DNA from: a virus
Lineage: Duplodnaviria; Heunggongvirae; Uroviricota; Caudoviricetes
Virus record (IMG/VR): IMGVR_UViG_3300045988_034843
Reading direction: 5' to 3' (one strand)
DNA length: 25,609 nt
The translations under genes were made by a program, and so were the position numbers. Below are positions 1 to 24,230 of this stretch, piece after piece (position 1 is the first letter of the stretch; every line of letters begins with the position of its first letter). Below the pieces are notes generated by a model. That model ran no database searches, had not been told where the DNA came from, and saw only the letters and a list, made by a program, of their open reading frames with translations.

Positions 1-899
1 TAGATGACATTGTCATATACAAACGTTTTATCCTGCGTCCAGGCGTTGTACCACGGTGTATCTGTAATTTTAAATAACTCTCCCTGGATAAAATCTTCAG
101 AAGCATAAAAAAGAGGCTGGCCCGGTATTCTCTCAAATAAAAAACGAGCATTTTTAAATCGACTGACATCCGGAAGAGTTGATACTTTAAAAGTAAGCCC
201 TAATCCGTCAATTTTATAACCTGGAGATGAGGCTTCAAGGCACGCGCTTATTGCAGTGGAATCGTCATTTATACCATCACCAACAGCTCCAAAATCTTTG
301 GGGCTAATAGCATCACGCATTTTATCCTGGAACGTTCGGTACACAGCCCCAGAACCATACTGAATAAACCAACCAAAACCACCAACAACTCCGGCGATTG
401 CAGCATCGACATAATTACGCATTGAGCGATTATTTACAGCGTCCTGCTCAAATGATGGATCTGCAAGGTTAGAAATTTTGTTTTGCTTTGCATCGTAATA
501 TTTTGCAAGCAAAGATGGTTTCATCAATGCACGTCTGAACCACCCAAAACATTGCTGGATCAGCATCGTCAGGTAGTCAAAGGCATCTTCATGCACTTCG
601 GGGAAAAATTTTCCCTGATTGCGAAGGTCTGTGTCCTGCACTACATCAAGCACACGATCTATCGTAATTCGCCATCCAGTAGCAAGCGGAGACGGAAGAA
701 CCACAGAACCGCCACTATAAGTGCCCGCCCCAGTTACCGTATAACCGGTATCCAGGACCAATTCTGTTACGTTCCCGTTCAGGTCAGACACCTGAACAAC
801 CAGGTCTGATTTTCTGAAAATTCGAAAAGTATACGGAAACGATGTCGTAACGCCGTTACCGGTGTATTCGTTGTGGTCAACTTCGGTTGAGACCGTCAT
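1..899 (-). CDS. Tailspike / tail fibre, N-terminal ~299 aa only; gene continues past window start
   Basis: ATG at 899 preceded by GGAGA RBS; own translation of minus strand gives MTVSTEVDHNEYTGNGVTTSFPYTFRIF...DLVVQV (pattern like the T7 gp17 N-terminal tail-attachment domain) followed by DFGAVGDGINDDSTAI, a motif typical of pectate-lyase-fold tailspike depolymerases. Not in the ORF track because no stop lies inside the window. Confidence 0.8.
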   Translation of the reverse strand, partial: MTVSTEVDHNEYTGNGVTTSFPYTFRIFRKSDLVVQVSDLNGNVTELVLDTGYTVTGAGTYSGGSVVLPSPLATGWRITIDRVLDVVQDTDLRNQGKFFPEVHEDAFDYLTMLIQQCFGWFRRALMKPSLLAKYYDAKQNKISNLADPSFEQDAVNNRSMRNYVDAAIAGVVGGFGWFIQYGSGAVYRTFQDKMRDAISPKDFGAVGDGINDDSTAISACLEASSPGYKIDGLGLTFKVSTLPDVSRFKNARFLFERIPGQPLFYASEDFIQGELFKITDTPWYNAWTQDKTFVYDNVI

Positions 900-1004
900 G
901 TTAAATCTCCAGATAGTCGCAGCACCCGTTGCGCCGCATATCTGGTTATTCTATTACCTGAAAAACCATATATGGATAAAAAGACTATAAATACCAATAG
1001 ATAT

Positions 1005-1019
1005 TACCTTTCGGGTAAT
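1005..1019. promoter_or_regulatory. Dyad operator-like site TTACC-TTTCG-GGTAA (copy 1 of 6)
   Basis: Exact 5-bp inverted half-sites with 5-bp spacer, flanked A...T; 76 bp upstream of the ATG at 1095. Confidence 0.6.
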
Positions 1020-1055
1020 TTGCAAAACGTGCTGGATAGCAAACAAATTATTTGT

Positions 1056-1075
1056 TACTGTATAAACATACAGTT
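1056..1075. promoter_or_regulatory. LexA (SOS) box TACTGTATAAACATACAGTT
   Basis: CTGT-N8-ACAG with AT-rich spacer, close match to the E. coli LexA consensus TACTGTATATATATACAGTA; contains TATAAA (-10-like); 20 bp upstream of the ATG at 1095. Confidence 0.7.
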
Positions 1076-1094
1076 ATTGCATGGAGAAGATAAG

Positions 1095-1352
1095 ATGCAG
1101 CAGTATCACTATCCACTGGAAGACGGATTTACCGAAAGGATTCACACGCCGGGAGGCGTCAGGTCACTGGTGGAGGGATCGCACTTGATGAAATTACTCC
1201 GGGATCTCGATAAGGATGGATTTAATGTCGATGGCCCACTTGCCGAACTGACTGCACTGATTAACTACGTCACCAGCTCACAGATGTCTATGCAGGATCT
1301 GCAAACACATCTCGACTATTGTGCCGAACAATTACGAAAACAAACCCGGTAA
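1095..1352 (+). CDS. Small (85 aa) protein paralogous to the C-terminal domain of the Ant-like protein at 2503-3159; putative LexA-controlled antirepressor/induction factor
   Basis: Internal ATG of track ORF 972-1352 with GGAGAAG RBS 7 nt upstream; the 972 start would place the LexA box and dyad inside coding sequence; about 50 percent identity by eye to residues ~150-210 of the 218-aa Ant-like protein (IHTPGGV..LMKLL..DG..V.G..AELT...DLQTH). Confidence 0.6.
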   Translation: MQQYHYPLEDGFTERIHTPGGVRSLVEGSHLMKLLRDLDKDGFNVDGPLAELTALINYVTSSQMSMQDLQTHLDYCAEQLRKQTR

Positions 1353-1359
1353 ATTTAAA

Positions 1360-1375
1360 GGCCGCAAGAGCGGCC
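1360..1375. terminator. Hairpin GGCCGC-AAGA-GCGGCC between convergent genes
   Basis: 6-bp GC stem with 4-nt loop directly after the stop at 1352 and overlapping the minus-gene stop at 1375; T-rich on the minus-strand side. Confidence 0.5.
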
Positions 1376-2103
1376 TATCGTTTCGCTTTGTGCTCGTCCC
1401 AGCACGTTTTGCACCATGCCATTAAGCCATCCGCATTTTGATTATTAGGGTAAAAGCTTGTTCGTTTTCTGCGGACATTACAAATTGGGCACCACTTCAT
1501 ATGGCGTGTATTCTTTGGGCCATCGAGACACCTTGCACACCACTTAGTCAATCCATCTGGATTTTTTGACGATTTCCTGAATTTTTCATATGGTAGGTTT
1601 ATTCTGCATCGCAAGCACTGCTTGCTACCACTTGAAACTCTGTTAGCTGATTCTTCTTTTGGCGGCGATACAGAAGGTATTCTTGCTGGCTCTGATACTG
1701 CCTGAGGTGCTTTTTTAGATGACTGAGACGATATGTCATCACCAGGGAATCTTCCATGATATGCCGGACGCGTTGACACTCCAGGTGGAAGCTCAGCTGT
1801 AAACGGCTTTGGCTGAATCAGTTGCCTCTCTTTTGCTAACTCCTGCTGTTTATAATATGTCTGGATTACCGCACTATCATAAGCAGGAGGTGCGGAAATA
1901 TTAGGCGCATTACCTCCAGTTTTTTGAAACTGAGTAGAGGTGTGTTCTATCACCTGTGTACGATTAATCGTTATCTCCCCATCTTCGGTCTTTATCGTTT
2001 TGTTATGATTAACGACCGTACGATCAGAGATCTTAGTCTTGTTCTGGTTGATAACGTAAATAATCACCGCAACCACACCAACAACTATCCAGAAAACTTC
2101 CAT
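1375..2103 (-). CDS. Membrane-anchored protein with tandem C-x2-C-x22-C-x2-C zinc-ribbon-like repeats (242 aa); function unknown
   Basis: Track ORF; N-terminal hydrophobic helix (VFWIVVGVVAVIIYVI); C-terminus has two repeats CLRC...NPDGLTKWCARC and CPIC...NADGLMAWCKTC; GAGGAAAA RBS upstream of ATG at 2103. Confidence 0.7.
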   Translation of the reverse strand: MEVFWIVVGVVAVIIYVINQNKTKISDRTVVNHNKTIKTEDGEITINRTQVIEHTSTQFQKTGGNAPNISAPPAYDSAVIQTYYKQQELAKERQLIQPKPFTAELPPGVSTRPAYHGRFPGDDISSQSSKKAPQAVSEPARIPSVSPPKEESANRVSSGSKQCLRCRINLPYEKFRKSSKNPDGLTKWCARCLDGPKNTRHMKWCPICNVRRKRTSFYPNNQNADGLMAWCKTCWDEHKAKR

Positions 2104-2123
2104 TGCTTTTCCTCACAATAACA

Positions 2124-2138
2124 TTACCTTAAAGGTAA
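2124..2138. promoter_or_regulatory. Dyad operator-like site TTACC-TTAAA-GGTAA (copy 2)
   Basis: Centre 28 bp upstream of the minus-strand ATG at 2103; overlaps a candidate TTGATC-N17-TACCTT promoter on the minus strand. Confidence 0.6.
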
Positions 2139-2216
2139 TATCTTGCTTTCAGGTGATCAAGCGTTAAACGCAATCAACCAAATACGGTTGATTTTAATAT
2201 TTCTTCGCGTTTATCA

Positions 2217-2231
2217 TTACCTTTGCGGTAA
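2217..2231. promoter_or_regulatory. Dyad operator-like site TTACC-TTTGC-GGTAA (copy 3)
   Basis: Same half-sites and spacing; lies in the 400-bp intergenic region between the divergent genes at 2103 and 2503. Confidence 0.55.
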
Positions 2232-2321
2232 ATTTACATTGCACTCCTCTTGTGCCATAGTAATCGGGCACTGGCAAAATCCAGTGCCGGGATTGGTCTC
2301 CCGGATTACTAAGTGGCGCAT

Positions 2322-2344
2322 ACCACGCCAGACGTGGTTTTTTT
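2322..2344 (+). terminator. Rho-independent terminator-like hairpin in the leader upstream of the Ant-like gene
   Basis: ACCACG-CCAGA-CGTGGT stem-loop followed by TTTTTT(T); preceded by two further hairpins at 2267-2288 and 2287-2304. Confidence 0.5.
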
Positions 2345-2502
2345 ATGCGTATAGCACAGTCATGCCAGAATTATGGTGGGCTGAATGGGGGTCCGAAAGG
2401 ACGCCGGTACCACTTAGGCCGGTAAGACCAACTCCGTTCAGTTCACCACCATCTGATTGGTCTCAGCGGTGGTGATGTAATTCGCTAAGTGGAGACGCCA
2501 TC

Positions 2503-3159
2503 ATGAACGCTCAACTCATCCCCGTATTCAACGGCACTATATCTAACGAAACAGCCCTACTTTGTAATGCCCGCGATCTGCACGCTTTTTTAGGTGTTAA
2601 AAAGGTGTTTGCAGCATGGATTACAAATCGCATATCAGAATACGAATTCATTGAAAATCAAGACTATATTTTGCTTTCCAATTTGGGAAAGCAAACATCT
2701 GGTAGAGGCGGCCACAACCGCAAAGAGTACCACCTCACCCTTGATACAGCCAAAGAGCTGGCGATGGTCGAGCGTAACGAAAAAGGTCGCCAGGTGCGAC
2801 GCTACTTCATTGAATGCGAGAAACGTTTAAGACAACAAGAAACAAAAGTGGAGAAGGTCTTGTCAGGCTTCATGCCCGCCATTATGGAGGCGATCAAGCT
2901 GGAAGACAAAAAAGAATACAGCGCCCCACTGAAGCCCGGCTACCGCAGCCTGATTCACTCGCCGTCTGGTGTTCTCGGCCTGACTGAGAACTCACTGCTG
3001 ATGAATCTGCTGAACCAGTTACAGGAAGACGGGCACGATGTATCTGGCGCGGCGGCGGAGCTGACCACCATGTTCTGCTACATCGTTGGTGTGAGCAAAT
3101 GCCTGCGTGATATCCAGACCCACGCGGAGTACATCAACGACAAGGCAGGGTTCTTCTGA
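2503..3159 (+). CDS. Antirepressor-like protein, AntA-type N-terminal domain (218 aa)
   Basis: Track ORF; GGAGA RBS 7 nt upstream; N-terminus IPVFNG...[10 protein letters not shown]...F..W...RI.EYEF.EN.DY resembles the AntA/AntB antirepressor domain as I recall it; C-terminal third is paralogous to the 85-aa protein at 1095-1352. Confidence 0.7.
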
Positions 3160-3244
3160 CGAGCGGCGGCACATGGATGTGCCTACAATTATCAATAATT
3201 GTTTACACTCGTTGCAGTTAAAAGCATTATACTCATGTTTAAAA

Positions 3245-3259
3245 TTACCCGATTGGTAA
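3245..3259. promoter_or_regulatory. Dyad operator-like site TTACC-CGATT-GGTAA (copy 4)
   Basis: Centre 29 bp upstream of ATG 3281, downstream of a TTATACT -10-like element. Confidence 0.6.
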
Positions 3260-3280
3260 AGTCGATTGGTTGAGGTTCAT

Positions 3281-3607
3281 ATGAGCAGAAGATATGTCAA
3301 GGAGCTGGCTATAGAGTCTGGCACCCCTTTGGGTATCGTTCCTGGCTCCAACTATGCCAAGGCTTTAAACCGAGACTCTGTCGTCAAAGTTATATCAAGA
3401 GACATGAATATGGTCGGAGACGATCTCAGACGGTCAGAAAATCGTGTTTATGCTGAATATATAGTAAAGAACGGAAAAAAAATTGCAGCGCCTGCTGGCG
3501 GAAAATGGGCAATAGTGACAGGGAAAAACTCAAATGCAAGAGGAAAACCAGAAGCTAAAGGAATGTCCTTCGACAAATATGCAAAAATCTATTGGGCAAC
3601 CAAGTGA
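3281..3607 (+). CDS. Hypothetical protein (108 aa)
   Basis: ATG 3281 with GAGG 7 nt upstream (track ORF 3266-3607 trimmed to this ATG); AT-rich, lysine-rich; no motif I recognise. Confidence 0.55.
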   Translation: MSRRYVKELAIESGTPLGIVPGSNYAKALNRDSVVKVISRDMNMVGDDLRRSENRVYAEYIVKNGKKIAAPAGGKWAIVTGKNSNARGKPEAKGMSFDKYAKIYWATK

Positions 3608-4082
3608 TAACGAAGAAACTGAGTTCGAGGAAGTTGAGGAAGGGCTAAGTAACGAGATCATTCAACACCCAGATGCCTTCACAAGAGTTCTTGATCGCCC
3701 TGAAATTCAGGAGATAGTTGTCGCTCACCATGCGTTTCAGGGGCCGCTTCCTCCCCCCTATCTGCTTCGCGGGTATCAGGATATTTTACCTGATGCCCCC
3801 GAACGCATCTTCCAGTTGACGGAGAAGGAGTTTGCTCACCGCCAGAAAATGGAGGAAAAGGCACTTGACGGGGCTATTAATAGAGATAAACGTGGGCAGT
3901 GGTTTGGCCTGAGTGCAACTATTTTTACAGTAGCTTGTGCAACATTATTAGGTTTAACAGGTCATGAAGTTCTAGCTGGCACAGTGATCGGTACAGTTGT
4001 TGCAGTGGCTGGTATTTTCGTTCTTAGACAAAAACCAAGCATCAAGAAGAAATCTGAAGACAACAAACCTGAAGAAAAGTAA
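3534..4082 (+). CDS. Membrane protein with two C-terminal TM helices, possibly DUF2335-like (182 aa; alternative start 3579 gives 167 aa)
   Basis: Track ORF; overlaps the 3' end of the previous gene in another frame; conserved-looking stretch PLPPPYLLRGYQDILPDAPERIF...HRQ then hydrophobic segments FGLSATIFTVACATLLGL and VIGTVVAVAGIFVL; followed immediately by a terminator. Confidence 0.6.
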   Translation: MQEENQKLKECPSTNMQKSIGQPSDNEETEFEEVEEGLSNEIIQHPDAFTRVLDRPEIQEIVVAHHAFQGPLPPPYLLRGYQDILPDAPERIFQLTEKEFAHRQKMEEKALDGAINRDKRGQWFGLSATIFTVACATLLGLTGHEVLAGTVIGTVVAVAGIFVLRQKPSIKKKSEDNKPEEK

Positions 4083-4103
4083 GCCCGCGCTGCGGGCTTT
4101 TTT
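4082..4103 (+). terminator. Rho-independent terminator AGCCCGC-GCT-GCGGGCT + T6
   Basis: 7-bp GC-rich stem, 3-nt loop, T-run 4098-4103, directly after the stop at 4080-4082. Confidence 0.75.
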
Positions 4104-4175
4104 GTGGACGAAACAAAAGTCAGTGCTACACTCATTGACGCCACATTGAGGTGGCTTATAGATGGAAATTTCACA

Positions 4176-4337
4176 ATGAAAAAAGCATTTGCTGCACTGT
4201 TCGTTTTGTTGTCTCTGGTAGCTTCAACTCAGGCCTTTGCCGGTCGTTGTCAGCACGACAGCGACACTGCTGCTGACGGCTCCCGCTGCGGTGGGCGTTC
4301 TGCGGATTCCCGCCCGGGTGGCGGTGGCATTCGTTAA
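4176..4337 (+). CDS. Small predicted secreted peptide (53 aa) with N-terminal signal sequence
   Basis: Internal ATG of track ORF 4104-4337; MKKAFAALFVLLSLVASTQAFA looks like a Sec signal peptide with AFA cleavage motif; mature part Cys/Gly/Asp-rich; weak RBS. Confidence 0.4.
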   Translation: MKKAFAALFVLLSLVASTQAFAGRCQHDSDTAADGSRCGGRSADSRPGGGGIR

Positions 4338-4342
4338 AAACA

Positions 4343-4358
4343 AGGCCGCGAAAGCGGC
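4343..4358. terminator. Hairpin GGCCGC-GAAA-GCGGCC shared by convergent genes
   Basis: 6-bp GC stem with GAAA loop; the minus-strand reading is followed by TTGTTTTT, so it most plausibly terminates the minus-strand lipoprotein gene. Confidence 0.55.
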
Positions 4359-4360
4359 CT

Positions 4361-4372
4361 GTGACATGTCAC
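4361..4372. repeat. 12-bp perfect palindrome GTGACATGTCAC (copy 1 of 3)
   Basis: Exact palindrome abutting the hairpin at 4343-4358; overlaps the stop codon of the lipoprotein gene. Confidence 0.6.
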
Positions 4373-4749
4373 GCAACGCAATTATTACCGCGCCATGTAA
4401 CATTTTTAATAATCTTATCAGCACCAAACTCAACGTAAACAGAGCAACTGAAATGGAGTGTATAACCGCCATCAGTTGTTGCGTATGTGTTTGAATATAT
4501 AGTATTACCAATTAGATTAGACGTAGTATTATACGTTGTGGTTTGTGGTACGTTATAACTACCAGAGCTTGAGTAAACATACACTCTGTTTCCATCTGGA
4601 GATGTAAGCTCTCCCTGAGGATACCCCCACTGCTGAACCATTGCGTCTATACTCTGCCCGCGCCACGTAAGCATATTTCTTTCAAACTGTGCAGCTGACT
4701 GGCATCCAACGAGAAGCATAAATCCAAAAATCAAAAATACTTTTCTCAT
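4369..4749 (-). CDS. Putative lipoprotein (126 aa)
   Basis: Internal ATG of track ORF 4369-4785 with AGGGG RBS; MRKVFLIFGFMLLVGCQSA has a lipobox (LVGC); mature part Thr/Ser/Tyr/Asn-rich. Confidence 0.7.
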   Translation of the reverse strand: MRKVFLIFGFMLLVGCQSAAQFERNMLTWRGQSIDAMVQQWGYPQGELTSPDGNRVYVYSSSGSYNVPQTTTYNTTSNLIGNTIYSNTYATTDGGYTLHFSCSVYVEFGADKIIKNVTWRGNNCVA

Positions 4750-4834
4750 AATTACCCCTATCATGGAAAAACAGCACCAATCCACAAATTAACTAGTTAT
4801 TTTATTATTCTTCCGAACAATACAATTCCGAATA

Positions 4835-4960
4835 CTACAAAGCCGAACCATGCCGCTGCACGCAACAGAGATTCCAATTGAAACCCATTTTTATCAAAAT
4901 GTATGAATAGCATAAAAACGCTGCACATATTAGTACAATAAAAGTTATTTGAACCATCAT
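4835..4960 (-). CDS. Small hydrophobic peptide (41 aa), uncertain
   Basis: Own translation: AAGGAG RBS 4 nt before ATGATG at 4960, MMVQITFIVLICAAFLCYSYILIKMGF...; the track lists a different frame (4797-4985) for the same stretch, which lacks an RBS at its internal ATGs; only one of these, or neither, is real. Confidence 0.3.
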   Translation of the reverse strand: MMVQITFIVLICAAFLCYSYILIKMGFNWNLCCVQRHGSAL

Positions 4961-7448: not shown

Positions 7449-9251
7449 TTAACCTCTCAAGAAACACGCCACAGCGACATCAAACAGGCTGGAATCCTGT
7501 ATTGCCTGCTCACTTTCCCTGTTCGCTTCATCCAGTGCTTCACGCGCACTGCGCGATTGTGGATTACCATCATCATCCAGCACGGTGATTATCATGTCCG
7601 GAGATTCAAGCAGCGAGTCTTCAGCTATACGCAGATCAATATCTCCTGCCGGATCTGCCATCATTTTTTGTTCTGTCTGTTGCAATATCTTACCGGGCTC
7701 AAAAGGAGCTACTTCGTCTGGCGTCCTGACCTCTGCTGTTTTATAGAATGAAACAGCCTGAGTATTAAGTTCACTTTCAGCCTGCTGTCTCCGTGCCAGT
7801 TCTGCTCGAGCTTCAAAAAACTGACCGCCAGGCTCATGCGGTGCCAACGCGTTACGAGAAAATTCCAGGCGTTCTTGTGCCTGCCGGATTCGTTGGTCAA
7901 TATCGCGAAGTCTGGCCTGTTTATCTGATCGAGCACGAGATAAAGCCTTACCGCTACCGGCTGGATCTTCTGCAAGAATTTGTGCGCGCTGTTCAGTGAG
8001 ATTTTCAATAATTCGTTGGCTATTAGCGATTTCAGACTGGTAAACCTGTCTATCGCCACGCGGCAAAAGCTGCGCGGCCTGTTCTTCAAGCAACCGATTT
8101 TCTATAGCGCGCGCCGTTACTCCATCATCTACAGATGACAGAGCCTCATTAACTGCCTGAGACAGCAGACTCTTGCGTCCAGGAATTTCACTGAAAGATG
8201 CAGACTCAACAATGCTGGCAACGTCTACAGGTCTCCCCTGGCTAACATCAGACATGGCTTTTCGCAGAGCCTGAATGTGCGAATTACGCGAAAGCACGTT
8301 GATCGGCACGCCGGGAGCAATATCAATTTCAGCATGATGAGCGGCATTCGCCGCCAGTGCAGCATCGATATCAACTGGTGAAAAATTTGGTGCGCTTGTA
8401 GACTCGCCGCGAGAGTTAATAAATCTGCCGACACCACCAAACGCCACCCCAAGAACAGCATCAATAGCAATTGCCTGTCGATCCAACACATCATACTGGT
8501 TAGCCATTTCGCTATAGCCACCATCACGAAGCGTTTTTGCAGTAAGCCCACGCTGTGCCATACCGAACGCAATATTTGTACCTGCGGCATAGGCAATATC
8601 TGGCGTTGCACGTACTGCTGTTGCTGCGGCGCGTCGCACTGAACTTTCACCCGTCCGCGCAAGCTGAGCCGCCACACCTTCCGCCAGCGCACCACCAGCA
8701 CGTAACCCGAGGCTCATAGGGATCAGTGTTCCGGCACCAGCAGTAATACCCTGCACTAATCCCGCTTCCTGCGCCGTCCTGAAATCAACACCCTGTGCTG
8801 TCAGCCGTTCAAACTCAGAAAAACCCTGTAGAGAAGTTACCGCCGCAGCACCTCCGACCGGACCACCGAGCGTTGTACCGACAACAGCCTGCCCGCCCAT
8901 ATCGAACAACCCATAAAGAACCTGCCCGGCGGTTCCGGTTGTCGCGGCATCAGGCGTCAGCCGCTTAACCTGCTGTTCTGCTAGTTTTCTCTGCTCGGCA
9001 ATGTATGAAACTGAAGTATCATTGAGCGAGGTGTTTTCGTTAATAAACTGAGCAATCGGGGATACGATTTTATCCATCCCTGCCCATAGCAACTGATCTG
9101 GCTTTGCCACCAGCCCGGAGTACAAACCAGACAATGCCGCTCCTACAGCATTGTCGAAAAAACCAACATCGCTGTTAAAGCCCGCTGGATTTGATGCTGC
9201 TTCGTCAAGCTGCTGATTCTGGTTTACTGGATTAAGGCCAAAGTAACTCAT
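7449..9251 (-). CDS. Internal virion / ejection protein (600 aa)
   Basis: Track ORF; Ala/Gly-rich, start overlaps the upstream stop (translational coupling). Confidence 0.6.
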   Translation of the reverse strand: MSYFGLNPVNQNQQLDEAASNPAGFNSDVGFFDNAVGAALSGLYSGLVAKPDQLLWAGMDKIVSPIAQFINENTSLNDTSVSYIAEQRKLAEQQVKRLTPDAATTGTAGQVLYGLFDMGGQAVVGTTLGGPVGGAAAVTSLQGFSEFERLTAQGVDFRTAQEAGLVQGITAGAGTLIPMSLGLRAGGALAEGVAAQLARTGESSVRRAAATAVRATPDIAYAAGTNIAFGMAQRGLTAKTLRDGGYSEMANQYDVLDRQAIAIDAVLGVAFGGVGRFINSRGESTSAPNFSPVDIDAALAANAAHHAEIDIAPGVPINVLSRNSHIQALRKAMSDVSQGRPVDVASIVESASFSEIPGRKSLLSQAVNEALSSVDDGVTARAIENRLLEEQAAQLLPRGDRQVYQSEIANSQRIIENLTEQRAQILAEDPAGSGKALSRARSDKQARLRDIDQRIRQAQERLEFSRNALAPHEPGGQFFEARAELARRQQAESELNTQAVSFYKTAEVRTPDEVAPFEPGKILQQTEQKMMADPAGDIDLRIAEDSLLESPDMIITVLDDDGNPQSRSAREALDEANRESEQAIQDSSLFDVAVACFLRG

Positions 9252-11761
9252 TGCGGAATATCTCCGGAGAATCTCTGACGCTTCTGTGTCAGATCAAGAA
9301 CAACGGGAGAACCATCATCTTTTAGCAGATAACCAGTACCAAGTTTCACCAGGTACTGACTATCGCCGTAACTTTGCAAACCATACTGACCAGGCGGTGT
9401 TTTTATCCCTGTGCCAACAACTTGTTCATTCCAAGCCTGATTAACCTGCTTATCGAATTGCTCTGCAGACATTCCCCACGGCAAAAGAACATTCCCCATT
9501 CCGTTATAGTCATGCACGCCACCTGTAGCTACGTTAACAGCCTGTTTCCAGATATCATTGTCAATTTCGCCTGATACCACGCCTTTTTTCGCCATCACAC
9601 CAGCGTAATAGTCCTTTGCGATCTCGTATGCCATTGATGCCCCCTGAGCATCACCAGCAAATGCATCCTTAACCATGTCAGAAAACTCAAGGCGGAGATC
9701 AGCATCTTTAGGCATCGGAATACCTTTCGCGTCATCAGTACCTTTACGAGCCGCCGCGCCAGCAAGAATTGTCTGCGCAGCGGTTTCAGGAGACACGGAA
9801 ACATCCGGATTAAACCAGTTTTTTTCTGCCAAAATACCACCTGGCTTATCCATCAGTATCCCGGCAACGGCAGCAGATGGAGCGTTGGCACTGATCTGCT
9901 GTAGTGCTGACATATACACCTGCCCACCACCAGTGCTCTGCCTGATGGTATCGAGATATGCTGCCTGTTGGGAAACGGGCGCATCACGAAAGAAAACACC
10001 GATCTGATTGGCCTCGTCTTTGGAAAAGAACGTCAGTGGAGTGCCATATGACTTAGCAAGGTCACTGACCTGAGCAGCACGCAAGGCAACGCTCTGTCCA
10101 AAGTTATCCTTATTGCTCATGTCGATAGGCTTTGTCTGTCCTGCGGCAAGAGAGAACTGTACAGGATCAGCCTGTCGCTGCTTTATCACCTGACTTGCAG
10201 CCGACACAACGTTGTCATAAAGAGCGGCTCGTGCCGCATAACCCTCCCCTGTCTCACCAGTATCCGGGCGTAATTGCTCAACATATGCTGTAATGCTGCT
10301 TGTCGGCATGTTGCGGAAAGAGCCTATATACTGTCCGGCGATTTGCGTATTTCTGAACTCGGTATATCGCAGGTTTCCTTCTCTTACTCCATAAGCTGCA
10401 ATAAAATCAGCCTCACCAGGTGGGTTAGGAAATTCAACGCCACGCATATACGCAGCTGTCGCATCGCGAACCTGGCTGTCAATCATCGTTTTATATTCAG
10501 CCTGCTGCTGCCGACGCAGTTGATCCGCCTGTCGCATAAAACTTGCCTGCGCCTCAGGAGATGCCGCATCGAATGCTGCATTACCGGTATAGCGTTTGGT
10601 GTTGGTTGGAATTGTTGATAAACCAAGTGCTGCACTGACACCAGCAGTTAACTGCTGATCACTGTATGGCTGGCTACCGTTCTCATGATGGATAATGGCT
10701 GCACAAAGCGCCTTCAGGGTATCAGGATTAGATGCATCGAGAGGCTCATCAGCAGAAACGCCAAGTTGTTCGCACACTGCTTTGATATACGACATAGTGT
10801 CATTTTTATCAGCAGGCGGTGCCCAGCGATTAATTATCTCGCTGACGGTATCAATACCCTGCCTCTGATACGACATCAGGTTCCGCCCTAATGCACGAAT
10901 CCCGTGTTCAGGTGTTTCGAATTTAGCAAATCGACCATCATCACCGGTCTGGCCTACCCACGGATTAGTTTTGCTGTATTCGAGATTTCCTGGGTTATTG
11001 TTGCGTATGCCACGGGCACGCTCGGAAGAGTCACTATCTGCTACAGCACGGCGAGCTCCAGCAGCAGTATCACTTAACTCGCCATTACTTTGGATGAATG
11101 CGGTCGCATTGTTTGCCGACCACTGGGACAATGCAGCATCAGCAACCTTCTCTTTAAACTCGATTTTCTTGGCCTGGATTTGCTCGTTGCTCCAGCCATG
11201 TGCAACACCGTACTCCTCAATTTGCTGGAAAGTTTGTTTGTTAGCCAATACGTATGCGGCGTTGTCGCCATACAATGCTGCGGCATTTTTACCATTGTTC
11301 AGCAGTGTCGCCTGAAACTGGCCTTCTTCGTAGGCATTAATTTGCCCTATCTCGTGTCGCCCGGCCTGCGTAGTGAACTGAATGCGCTGCTGCTGCGCCT
11401 GCTGCATGAAAGCATTACGAGCCTGTTCATCCGGCAGCGACATAGCCAGTTGTTCGACCTGAGCATCAAACTGCTGCGTATACTCATGGCCTTTTCCAAT
11501 AGCATTTTTCCCTTTCAGGTTAAGCAATCCTGTTTCAGGATTATTCAGCAGATCGCTGCTTATCTGACTGAGGTTAAGAGATGCCTCCTGAGCCAGAGCA
11601 ATATTGGCACGCTGTTTTGCCTGCCCCAAAACATCAATTGCCTCTGTCCCTGCCCGAACAAAAGCATCACCAATACCTTGCTGAGAAAACGTCTGCAAGC
11701 CTGCTGACTGAACTCCACGACTCTCAACCTGACGTCCGGATACTGTTGGTACGACTGGCAT
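9248..11761 (-). CDS. Internal virion protein with possible cell-wall-hydrolase motif (837 aa from ATG 11761)
   Basis: Track ORF 9248-11836 trimmed to the ATG at 11761, which has a GGAGG RBS and overlaps the upstream stop as TAATG; contains GIRNNNPGNLEYSKTNPWVG...FETPEHGIRALGRNLMSY, which I recall as typical of phage virion-associated muralytic domains (unverified). Confidence 0.6.
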   Translation of the reverse strand: MPVVPTVSGRQVESRGVQSAGLQTFSQQGIGDAFVRAGTEAIDVLGQAKQRANIALAQEASLNLSQISSDLLNNPETGLLNLKGKNAIGKGHEYTQQFDAQVEQLAMSLPDEQARNAFMQQAQQQRIQFTTQAGRHEIGQINAYEEGQFQATLLNNGKNAAALYGDNAAYVLANKQTFQQIEEYGVAHGWSNEQIQAKKIEFKEKVADAALSQWSANNATAFIQSNGELSDTAAGARRAVADSDSSERARGIRNNNPGNLEYSKTNPWVGQTGDDGRFAKFETPEHGIRALGRNLMSYQRQGIDTVSEIINRWAPPADKNDTMSYIKAVCEQLGVSADEPLDASNPDTLKALCAAIIHHENGSQPYSDQQLTAGVSAALGLSTIPTNTKRYTGNAAFDAASPEAQASFMRQADQLRRQQQAEYKTMIDSQVRDATAAYMRGVEFPNPPGEADFIAAYGVREGNLRYTEFRNTQIAGQYIGSFRNMPTSSITAYVEQLRPDTGETGEGYAARAALYDNVVSAASQVIKQRQADPVQFSLAAGQTKPIDMSNKDNFGQSVALRAAQVSDLAKSYGTPLTFFSKDEANQIGVFFRDAPVSQQAAYLDTIRQSTGGGQVYMSALQQISANAPSAAVAGILMDKPGGILAEKNWFNPDVSVSPETAAQTILAGAAARKGTDDAKGIPMPKDADLRLEFSDMVKDAFAGDAQGASMAYEIAKDYYAGVMAKKGVVSGEIDNDIWKQAVNVATGGVHDYNGMGNVLLPWGMSAEQFDKQVNQAWNEQVVGTGIKTPPGQYGLQSYGDSQYLVKLGTGYLLKDDGSPVVLDLTQKRQRFSGDIPQ

Positions 11762-17003: not shown

Positions 17004-17054
17004 CTTCTTTCTCCATTAGTGGGCCTGTTGCGGCCCACAGGTTAATAACAGGCG

Positions 17055-21036: not shown

Positions 21037-21051
21037 ATTACCTTTCAGGTA
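21037..21051. promoter_or_regulatory. Dyad operator-like site TTACC-TTTCA-GGTAA (copy 5)
   Basis: Same half-sites and spacing; preceded by TTGACA (21016-21021) 17 bp before TACCTT; lies between the 20947 minus-strand start and the plus-strand tRNA. Confidence 0.6.
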
Positions 21052-21374
21052 ACCAAAGAGTTCATTCCGGTTACTAACCTGACTGGCTTGTCGTTAAATT
21101 GAACAGGTGGAGTGAGCTTTTATTTTGAGCAGTACGGCGTATGGCACATGCGCCGATAGCGGTCTGGATGCGTTTAAGGGGCACCCTCCCTGGCTGTGGC
21201 AAACGAACCAGGTAGCCGGAATGTGCAAGTCGAGCGGTTTTATTCCGCGCACGGGGATTCACCATCCCGGCGATTCGGTGTGACGCCTCGGAAGAGACGA
21301 GGGTACAACGATGAGAGCATTTATGGAGCCGCGACAAAGTGTGGCGCCTTAACAGGCTAAGTGCTCTCAGCGTT

Positions 21375-21451
21375 GTGGCATTAGCTCAGTTGGACAGAGC
21401 AACCGCCTTCTAAGCGGTTGGTCGCAGGTTCGAATCCTGCATGCCACGCCA
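21375..21451 (+). tRNA. tRNA-Arg (anticodon UCU), 77 nt with encoded CCA
   Basis: Hand-folded cloverleaf: acceptor GTGGCAT/ATGCCAC, D-arm GCTC-AGTTGGACA-GAGC, anticodon stem ACCGC/GCGGT with loop CTTCTAA, T-arm GCAGG-TTCGAAT-CCTGC, discriminator G, CCA; close to but not identical with E. coli argU as I recall it. Confidence 0.85.
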
Positions 21452-21536: not shown

Positions 21537-21614
21537 ACAGCAGGGCGCCATTGCGATGGCTTCATGCTGTAAACCAGTACAGCCACGGAAGGCATAACTC
21601 ATTGCTTCCAGTTC

Positions 21615-23591: not shown

Positions 23592-24187
23592 TGATTGCCA
23601 TCCTGACGTTCTTTCAGTCTCTTCCTGGCTGCCGCTATGCGATCAGCAATTGTCACATTCACATTAACATCCAGGCGTTCTTTGAATGCGTTGACGTCGA
23701 CGTGCTTACCAATCAGTTCGAGGTTCTTCACCTTGTCAGGCCATTTAATTTTTTTGAGGATGCCAACCAGCTCTTTCTCGTCTCCACGGCCTTCGAACAT
23801 GTCGGCCAGTTCGAAACCTGTCAGGTACTGCCGCCAGACCTTAGGCCATTCCGAGACCGGCTTGATGCTCATATCGTCGTTGAGAATGTCAATCACGTCC
23901 ATCTGGTCGATCTCCACCAGGCGCATGAGAACGTAATCAGCACTGACGCGCATTCGTTTGTTGCGCTCCTCCATCAACTCGGCAATCCGTTTCTGAATGC
24001 GTTCATCGCGCATCATGACACTGGCTTTAACTGCCGCTGTATTTGGGGAGAATCCTGCATTAATCGCAGCCTGAGTCTGGTTTTCAGGCGTTTTGATGTA
24101 TGACTGGCAATAAGCCTCCTGCATTGCTGTTAGTGGCTTAAATTGCGTTGATTTGCGTTTATAGGTTTTAGGTTCAGCAGGCATCAT
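23588..24187 (-). CDS. Terminase small subunit (199 aa from ATGATG at 24187)
   Basis: Track ORF 23588-24265 begins at a TTG; the in-frame ATGATG at 24187 is preferred; helix-turn-helix-like TAMQEAYCQSYIKTPENQTQAAINAGFSP; directly upstream of and overlapping the large subunit. Confidence 0.55.
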   Translation of the reverse strand: MMPAEPKTYKRKSTQFKPLTAMQEAYCQSYIKTPENQTQAAINAGFSPNTAAVKASVMMRDERIQKRIAELMEERNKRMRVSADYVLMRLVEIDQMDVIDILNDDMSIKPVSEWPKVWRQYLTGFELADMFEGRGDEKELVGILKKIKWPDKVKNLELIGKHVDVNAFKERLDVNVNVTIADRIAAARKRLKERQDGNQ

Positions 24188-24204
24188 AACCACCGTGGTA
24201 ATAG

Positions 24205-24219
24205 TTACCGTTGTGGTAA
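24205..24219. promoter_or_regulatory. Dyad operator-like site TTACC-GTTGT-GGTAA (copy 6), embedded in GGTAA-TAG-TTACC-GTTGT-GGTAA-TAG-TACC
   Basis: Centre 25 bp upstream of the terminase small-subunit ATG; extra half-sites on both sides form a tandem GTGGTAATAG(T)TACC direct repeat. Confidence 0.55.
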
Positions 24220-24230
24220 TAGTACCATGC

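Follow-up and report, generated by a model that had tools for sequence, protein, structure and literature searches.

The window analysed here is the whole of a 25,609-nucleotide (nt) stretch of viral DNA (Caudoviricetes; virus record IMGVR_UViG_3300045988_034843), and the subject of this analysis is a pair of antirepressor genes on its + strand. Two open reading frames (ORFs) are compared, 1095-1352 encoding 85 amino acids (aa) and 2503-3159 encoding 218 aa, and they are separated by a 242-aa ORF of the - strand (1375-2103) and a 400-bp non-coding stretch. Judged by its top DNA matches, which are TL-2011b, phiv142-3, vB_EcoP_ZX5 (ZX5), HEMP4 and phiV10, the window is the late-gene half of an Escherichia coli prophage of the epsilon15/phiV10/SPC32H type, genus Uetakevirus. 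A 99%-identical prophage copy lies between yfgI and guaA in E. coli FDAARGOS_1285, the 99% identity extending over window positions 318-3184. The two proteins share one Ant domain under two separate gates, a LexA box for the small gene and a cassette of C4-type and isrK-type RNA for the large one, and it is likely that both converge on a single repressor, Rep. The coordinates of all features are collected in Table 1.

By homology the small gene falls squarely within the SPC32H Ant family. The 85-aa protein matches PDB entry 5D50_E ('Anti-repressor protein') in phmmer with an E value of 4.1e-47 over residues 2-84 and is 88% identical to the SPC32H ant gene in tblastn. PDB entry 5D50 is SPC32H Ant crystallised with its repressor Rep, and the 85-aa protein covers nearly the whole of that Ant. 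Both proteins of the window match phrog_450, the small one at 9e-48 and the large one at 3.9e-36. The first-pass annotation had placed the stand-alone gene under a LexA box, and a perfect CTGT-N8-ACAG is indeed present upstream of its start; the window holds three such boxes where 0.37 are expected, the others being at 17025 and 21567, so that the large gene is without one. The box and the surrounding promoter region are found in the same place in SPC32H, TL-2011b and phiV10, while two distant relatives (loci L008 and L009) carry the one-mismatch boxes ATGTATAAACATACAG and ATGTATATATATACAG. Kim and Ryu are said to have reported LexA control of ant in SPC32H in 2013. According to secondary descriptions, SPC32H Ant acts as a tetramer that captures two dimers of Rep and disrupts the tetrameric form in which Rep binds DNA; the contact with Ant is made by the domain through which Rep tetramerises, at its C-terminus (PMC9638917, PMC9986798). 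Since the 85-aa protein is little more than the domain shared with the large protein and is the ortholog of the Rep-bound Ant, homology identifies the shared unit as the one that binds the repressor.

That the 85-aa protein and the C-terminus of the Ant-like protein have a domain in common had been proposed from an alignment by eye, whose quoted strings stand verbatim in the translations, and formal comparison bears this out. In BLASTP, residues 2-75 of the small protein pair with residues 137-210 of the large one without gaps, at 31/74 identical positions (42%), 59% positives and an E value of 3e-16. The earlier description 'roughly half identical' agrees with 22/44 identities, by our count, over the quoted 44-residue core. 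A comparison by hhalign of two profile hidden Markov models (HMMs), built from 11 small-type and 11 fused-type relatives, gives a probability of 99.7% and an E value of 2.6e-25 over 81 columns. Chance or low-complexity similarity of the two proteins is ruled out by these two E values. A recent duplication or gene conversion is likewise ruled out, as DNA repeats between both genes amount only to 12-13-nt matches. Of 26 positions that are invariant among small-type Ants, 19 are retained in the fused C-domain, to be compared with the 42% overall identity. An exhaustive profile search of 1.84 billion cluster representatives recovered 61 clusters with the shared domain (E <= 1e-3); a word-indexed homolog search with the small protein had given only close stand-alone relatives, and the fused architectures came from the exhaustive search. 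In the longer proteins of these 61 clusters the domain is invariably C-terminal, its N-terminal partners are AntA, Bro-N, Phage_pRha (Rha) and ORF6N, and its motifs are kept across clusters less than 50% identical. No Pfam or NCBIfam model exists for the Ant domain, no NCBIfam model matches either protein, and phrog_450 is labelled 'unknown function', which is why most small Ant genes are annotated as hypothetical. The DUF724 match of the small protein is noise (17.6 bits against a cut-off of 38.4). On these alignments, both antirepressor genes are descendants of one ancestral Ant domain of ~80 residues. A layout of tailspike, small ant (with a LexA-type box), isrK, C4 and fused ant is found again in distant Rha-headed prophages with Ant domains that share only 30-55% identity with those of the window, indicating that the gene pair is old.

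The large protein belongs by its head to the AntA family and by its tail to the Ant family, as far as profile and structure matches tell. The AntA-type N-terminal domain named in the first-pass annotation is recovered by Pfam (PF08346) at residues 22-92 with 91.8 bits (cut-off 27; E 4e-26), and the Pfam scan detects no AntA domain in the small protein. Residues 137-213 match 5D50_E with an E value of 4.6e-14, and the protein has a full-length match to phrog_377 'anti-repressor Ant'. An AlphaFold2 (AF2) model of the fused protein, built on a 36-row alignment, reaches a predicted local distance difference test (pLDDT) score of 85-95 for residues 141-218 and displays one long 37-residue C-terminal helix, 181-217; a single-sequence run gave a mean pLDDT of 38.7 and was discarded. 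The structure prediction assigns the C-domain to the SPC32H Ant fold, the top Foldseek matches in PDB being 5d50_E/G/H with a target-normalised template modelling (TM) score of 0.84-0.85, a root-mean-square deviation (rmsd) of 1.1-1.8 Å, 38-39% identity and a probability of 1.00. For 5d50_E the values are a TM score of 0.84 and an rmsd of 1.1 Å, and the next match has a probability of 0.05. The AntA N-domain is poorly modelled (pLDDT 28-62) and no conclusion on the AntA fold is drawn from it.

The proposal that the shared domain is the repressor-binding unit gains support, beyond the homology with Rep-bound SPC32H Ant, from four further, independent observations. First, the N-domain is exchanged ahead of a C-domain of unchanged amino-acid sequence: the head is AntA in the window, Bro-N in TL-2011b, whose protein is identical to that of the window from YSAPLKPGY onwards, and Rha or ORF6N in other proteins. 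Second, the Ants of Shiga toxin (Stx) phages have an AntA N-domain with another C-terminus: in the antirepressor of Stx phage PA16 the AntA head is shared (59% identity) and the similarity is lost after about residue 110. Taken together, the swap in TL-2011b and the PA16 protein indicate that heads are interchangeable and that the tail goes with the Rep-bearing phage type. Third, the Ant domain occurs in 35 of 50,697 phage records and a full-length Rep homolog in all 35 of them, whereas Rep without the domain is found in 1 other record. Fourth, overexpression of ZX5 ORF4 lowered lysogens from 1e9 to 1e6 (~1000-fold) and rep mRNA by 75% (PMC9782041); in ORF4 a Bro-N head precedes a C-domain that shares 96% identity with that of the window, and the Rep of ZX5 is identical. 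Of 5,426 complete E. coli genomes, 529 have the small ant, 537 have rep and 469 have the fused C-domain; nearly all E. coli members carry a Rep of 100% identity (range 98.5-100%). From this body of comparison, the 218-aa protein most likely uses its C-domain to bind the same Rep as the 85-aa Ant, while any role given to the N-terminal domain is presumptive.

The same observations bear on two other readings of the shared domain. It might be mainly an oligomerisation module, through which the fused protein self-assembles its N-terminal effectors or co-assembles with the 85-aa Ant, acting as a brake or as a DNA tether via AntA, and does not bind Rep. The description of SPC32H Ant as a tetramer (PMC9638917), the dominance of one long helix in the modelled C-domain and the view of AntA, Bro-N and Rha as DNA-binding or regulatory domains, with the N-terminal AntA of AriS regulating phage genes (PMC9043618), would all be compatible with such a module. 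It is nonetheless unlikely, since the 85-aa protein is approximately this domain only and yet a sufficient antirepressor, which puts Rep binding and assembly into the same ~80 residues. Moreover, the ZX5 fused protein is pro-lytic on overexpression and not inhibitory, the exchange of the N-domain among four unrelated families with the C-domain kept fits poorly with the N-domain as the specific effector, and the paralogs differ most in the long helix, which argues against mixed oligomers. A fused antirepressor that has diverged towards another target, either the repressor of a co-resident prophage or a Rep variant of competing Uetakeviruses, is a distinctly improbable alternative, slightly more so than the oligomerisation module. 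It would agree with the limited identity of the paralogs, with the documented crosstalk of antirepressors between prophages such as Gifsy (PMC3121763), with an identity of up to 94%, over residues 1-90, of the AntA N-domain to that of Stx-phage antirepressors and with the extra fused copies found at a second position in some prophages. However, no phage record with the domain was without a Rep homolog, the family is very small and confined to this prophage type, the near-invariant Rep of E. coli members offers little diversity to target, and the ZX5 fused protein acts on its own phage.

A control of the large gene by isrK and C4 RNAs was missed by the first-pass annotation. Upstream of the gene lie, in order, a promoter-like site, an isrK-type small RNA (sRNA) element that corresponds to the a1/b1 decoy sites of phage P1, a C4-type antisense RNA and the C4 target sites of the gene's leader (Table 1). 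The Rfam model c4-a1b1 ('a1, b1 targets of C4') matches 2255-2307 with 39.9 bits, below its gathering threshold (GA) of 46.7. The target site a2 overlaps the Shine-Dalgarno motif GGAG and ends 10 nt before the ATG at 2503, so that C4, by the position of its target, would occlude the ribosome-binding site of the fused ant, and the decoy sites of isrK may titrate C4. The only ORF between C4 and ant, 2362-2475 with 37 codons, has its stop at 2473-2475, 28 nt before the ATG at 2503, and its start is not conserved in TL-2011b. Both isrK and C4, with scores above the gathering threshold, precede the fused gene in 6/6 loci, namely the window, TL-2011b, phiV10, HEMP4 and the two distant Rha-headed relatives. 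Exact complements of 7-9 nt among a1, a' and a2 and among b1, b' and b2 are present in 5/6 of them (window, TL-2011b, phiV10, HEMP4 and L009), in four combinations of a and b alleles that change in concert at all three positions. TL-2011b and phiV10 carry the alleles CCTTTTAG/CTAAAAGG and ACGCCAA/TTGGCGT, HEMP4 combines the a allele of the window with the b allele of TL-2011b, as a recombinant of the two, and L009 has CCTTTGTAG/CTACAAAGG and GTGCAAA/TTTGCAC. The remaining locus, L008, has the b allele of TL-2011b, and its a sites are only imperfect. Between the window and TL-2011b the cassette is homologous through promoter, isrK, C4 and b2, the homology ending ~25 nt before the ATG; beyond this break, a2 still matches the window's own C4 allele. 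This covariation at three positions argues strongly for a functional RNA interaction, and the case for C4 pairing rests on exact complementarity and covariation, with duplex energies set aside. The sign and the physiological trigger of the RNA control are presumed here.

Table 1. Position and basis of the antirepressor genes and of the candidate regulatory elements around them.
Feature	Position in window	Strand	Basis and remarks
Palindrome ATTACCTTTCGGGTAAT, probable Rep operator	1003-1019	.	Upstream of the small ant promoter
LexA (SOS) box CTGTATAAACATACAG	1058-1073	+	Exact CTGT-N8-ACAG, 22 nt before the small-gene ATG
Small antirepressor gene ant, 85 aa, starts MQQYHYPLEDGF	1095-1352	+	Ortholog of SPC32H Ant
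Hairpin, GC-rich, terminator-like	1359-1376	.	Between convergent ant and 242-aa ORF; terminator scan, scored on the - strand, stem palindromic
Palindrome ATTACC-N5-GGTAAT, second copy	2123-2139	.	Adjoins the start of the 242-aa ORF (-)
Palindrome, third copy	2216-2232	.	Abuts the -35 of the isrK promoter-like site
Sigma-70-like promoter TTTACA-17-CATAGT, with TG	2233-2261	+	Consensus match only; ends 7 nt before the isrK match; placed to start isrK
isrK-type sRNA element (P1 a1/b1 decoy sites), own terminator	2268-2344	+	Rfam RF01394, 67.7 bits (GA 50)
isrK sites b1 TTGGTCT and a1 CTAAGTGG	2293-2299 (b1); 2309-2316 (a1)	+	Complementarity to C4 loops
isrK terminator	2322-2338	+	Terminator scan
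C4-type antisense RNA	2369-2453	+	Rfam RF01695, 61.2 bits (GA 45), full model length
C4 loops a' CCACTTAG and b' AGACCAA	2410-2417 (a'); 2425-2431 (b')	+	Exact complements of a1/b1 and a2/b2
C4 target sites in the large-gene leader, b2 TTGGTCT and a2 CTAAGTGG	2457-2492 (b2 2457-2463; a2 2485-2492)	+	
Large antirepressor gene, 218 aa	2503-3159	+	AntA domain aa 22-92 (2566-2778); Ant-like C-domain about aa 137-213 (2911-3141)

Fused antirepressors of this kind are present in E. coli members, in Enterobacter (Tyrion) and in some Klebsiella members, and further AntA-headed copies lie next to int in HEMP4 (99% identity) and in E. coli strain 2015C-4944. A rule that isrK and C4 stand ahead of every fused copy was considered and fails, the int-side copy at the second position having an sRNA-Xcc1-type element instead. 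Directly upstream of the int-side copy of E. coli 2015C-4944 the Rfam sRNA-Xcc1 match (locus L011, 8471-8560) scores 62.9 bits, and directly upstream of the PA16 antirepressor (locus L012, 409-497) it scores 69.1 bits, the threshold being 53; the element may be another antisense-type controller of ant genes. In TL-2011b, ~2 kb downstream of the fused ant (locus L001, 8418-8485), the Rfam model of sar RNA, the antisense RNA of P22 immI, matches with 44.8 bits (threshold 43), which hints at a further immI-like module.

Taking protein and RNA elements together, the most probable scheme is one in which two inputs act on one repressor. LexA would occupy the box ahead of the small gene, and upon DNA damage small Ant would be made, its tetramer binding two dimers of the non-cleavable Rep and breaking up the DNA-binding Rep tetramer. 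The 218-aa protein would bind the same Rep through the C-domain that it carries behind an interchangeable AntA-type N-domain. Its synthesis would be held back by the C4-like RNA, which is predicted to pair by its two loops with b2 and a2 and so to cover the ribosome-binding site of the large gene, while the upstream isrK would carry the decoy copies b1 and a1. DNA damage would thus be one input, and the balance of C4 and IsrK RNA, responding to superinfection as anti-immunity or to cues other than SOS, would be the other.

Several findings weigh against this scheme. Binding of Rep by the fused copy, and its assignment to the C- rather than the N-domain, are presumed from homology; the ZX5 overexpression used the whole fused protein with its domains not separated. 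The rep gene lies outside the window and the cognate repressor is taken from the near-identical FDAARGOS_1285 prophage, where a 194-aa helix-turn-helix protein matches 5D50_A 'Repressor' with an E value of 4e-42. The paralogs differ systematically in the long C-terminal helix, which in the small protein reads NYVTSSQMSM.DLQTHLDYC and is the region of greatest difference, and with only 42% identity besides, their partners could differ. The energies of the C4-target duplexes are not clearly below those of shuffled sequences (-39.7 against -32.6 +/- 5.0 and -42.6 against -39.1 +/- 5.3). Finally, the fused antirepressor of phiV10, annotated 'putative anti-immunity protein' (p23/p22; locus L002, 4766-5445), is frameshifted inside the C-domain, the rest forming a separate 29-aa ORF. 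On this reading of its sequence phiV10 is probably without a working second antirepressor, and the frameshift indicates that the second antirepressor is dispensable for phiV10. This broken copy, and the position of the gene in an insertion-prone island missing from SPC32H, would suit a fused gene that is a decaying remnant or a recombination passenger with no role in the window prophage. Such a remnant is very improbable, however, given that the gene is intact in the window, that its C-domain is kept in the 469 complete E. coli genomes and its motifs across divergent clusters, and that the RNA sites, among them a2, which lies over the ribosome-binding site of the gene itself, co-vary precisely even in loci with an exchanged coding N-terminus.

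The contrast between a Rep that is nearly invariant (98.5-100%) and C4/IsrK sites that are allelic raises the possibility that the RNA defines immunity groups. It is conceivable, as a tentative extension of the two-input scheme and one more doubtful than the scheme itself, that the antisense RNA and not Rep sets immunity specificity, as in P1 and P7, with the fused Ant as the anti-immunity effector. A superinfecting phage with a differing C4 allele would then translate its fused Ant and disarm the shared Rep, with lytic growth of the incoming phage and induction of the resident prophage as the outcome. SOS induction would in that case be the sole task of the LexA-controlled small paralog, and the divergence of the long helix would keep the paralogs from forming mixed tetramers.

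A close precedent for the RNA cassette is the immI locus (c4 - icd - ant) of phages P1 and P7, with which the window shares a C4 RNA above the Rfam threshold and two loops complementary to a1/b1 upstream and to a2/b2 at the ribosome-binding site before the antirepressor. The alleles of P1 and P7 likewise differ and co-vary. In contrast to immI, the window has no icd-like ORF, a2 lies on the Shine-Dalgarno sequence of ant itself, and the phage type is a podovirus with a different repressor. The isrK-orf45-anrP arrangement of Gifsy-1 (Hershko-Shalev et al. 2016, PMC4825925) has in common with the window an isrK above threshold with its terminator, a conserved segment of ~90 nt and an antirepressor gene. 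In Gifsy-1, IsrK pairs with the ~90-nt segment and in trans activates translation by way of an upstream ORF that is coupled to anrP, its stop codon overlapping the start of that gene (AUGA) (PMC4825925), whereas the upstream ORF of the window is uncoupled and not conserved. From its position, the Gifsy-1 orf45 segment would correspond to the Rfam C4 RNA. Lacking both the icd-like ORF of P1/P7 and the coupled ORF of Gifsy-1, the window fails one defining feature of each system. Titration of C4 by isrK decoys would reconcile the repressing C4 of P1 with the activating IsrK of Gifsy-1 (PMC4825925).

Similarly, the proteins have several relatives. The Rep-Ant pair of SPC32H (PDB 5D50/5D4Z; Kim & Ryu 2013, Kim et al. 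2016) comprises the same small Ant, beside the tailspike gene and with the same LexA box. Different from it, the window holds a fused paralog, whereas SPC32H and other Salmonella members have the small Ant only, and the E. coli Rep is only 42% identical to that of SPC32H. In N15 there is likewise one antirepressor of the SOS regulon, the LexA-controlled AntC, together with AntA/AntB in the secondary immunity operon immA (PMC4488713, PMC3121763). Within the phage collection, N15 has no match to the Ant domain at E <= 1e-3. To our knowledge the N15 antirepressors have not been reported to share a domain, while the two antirepressors of the window are paralogs. AriS-like regulators (Listeria phi10403S; PMC9043618) resemble the fused family in combining an unchanging C-terminal effector with heads that alternate between AntA, Bro-N and pRha, but their C-domain is ANT/KilAC and damps the SOS response, whereas that of the window has the SPC32H-Ant fold. 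A further relative is ORF4 of ZX5 (PMC9782041), which comes from the same prophage type with an identical Rep and a 96%-identical C-domain and differs by its head, which is Bro-N and not AntA. In the ZX5 paper, whose subject is the lysis-lysogeny switch of that phage, ORF4 is treated as its sole antirepressor, the small Ant remains a 'hypothetical protein', and neither the paralogy nor the RNA elements are noted (PMC9782041). No description was found of two antirepressors of one phage as paralogs sharing a crystallised Rep-binding fold under separate LexA and antisense-RNA gates.

These relations yield a domain map for a large and poorly understood group of antirepressors, in which the AntA, Bro-N, Rha or ORF6N head would be generic and the small C-terminal module would choose the repressor, and they link this module to a solved repressor-antirepressor complex. 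In this prophage type, which ~10% of complete E. coli genomes contain, a single non-cleavable repressor is probably subject to two induction inputs that are independent of each other, with a bearing on spontaneous induction, on the outcome of superinfection and on prophage competition.

Beside both ant promoters lies a palindrome, ATTACC-N5-GGTAA(T), which occurs at 7 sites of the window (14 strand hits against 0.17 expected), all in promoter or intergenic regions. In addition to the three sites of Table 1 it is found at 3244-3260, 21037-21053, 24186-24202 and 24204-24220. Two clusters of three flank rep in SPC32H, and the palindrome also surrounds rep in the 99%-identical E. coli prophage; among the relatives, copies are located at 7972-7988, 8684-8700 and 8746-8762 of locus L004 and at 9528-9682 and 10390-10453 of locus L007. 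It is conserved upstream of ant in SPC32H and is common to E. coli and Salmonella members, though their Reps are only 42% identical. The clusters of three on either side of rep in SPC32H suggest that the palindrome is probably the Rep operator, in which case Rep would also touch the antirepressor promoters.

The genes directly downstream of ant in SPC32H encode a small membrane protein and an 824-aa virion protein, an adjacency from which positions 1353-4960 of the window (~3.6 kb) can be recognised as an accessory island inserted there. Relative to SPC32H, the fused paralog, the isrK/C4 elements and this island are all extra in the window. The 242-aa ORF between the two antirepressor genes matches phrog_6762 with an E value of 1e-150, displays by eye an N-terminal hydrophobic helix and two C-terminal CxxC...CxxC zinc-ribbon repeats, and has weak endonuclease-VII/Stc1-like matches; SPC32H lacks it, and phiV10 and TL-2011b retain only remnants. 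The remainder of the island (3266-4785) encodes a 113-aa ORF (phrog_10654), a DUF2335 membrane protein (3534-4082), a 77-aa ORF with a signal-peptide-like N-terminus by eye and a 138-aa ORF (-), none of which is found at this position in SPC32H. A DUF2335 gene is also located downstream of the fused ant in the distant relative L008. The small ant is flanked by a perfect 15-nt inverted repeat, TGCAAAACGTGCTGG at 1021-1035 and CCAGCACGTTTTGCA at 1399-1413, with one arm in the ant promoter region and the other within the 3'-terminal part of the 242-aa ORF. A repeat of this length is, on a rough estimate, far longer than chance would give in 2.4 kb; a recombination scar and an antisense pairing site are both conceivable. 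Among the late genes, a tRNA gene at 21375-21448 (+), annotated as tRNA-Arg in a related genome, is followed ~120 nt downstream by the CTGT-N8-ACAG box CTGTAAACCAGTACAG (21567-21582), which is kept in locus L003 and precedes a 140-aa + strand ORF annotated as a Gp49-family protein in a related genome.

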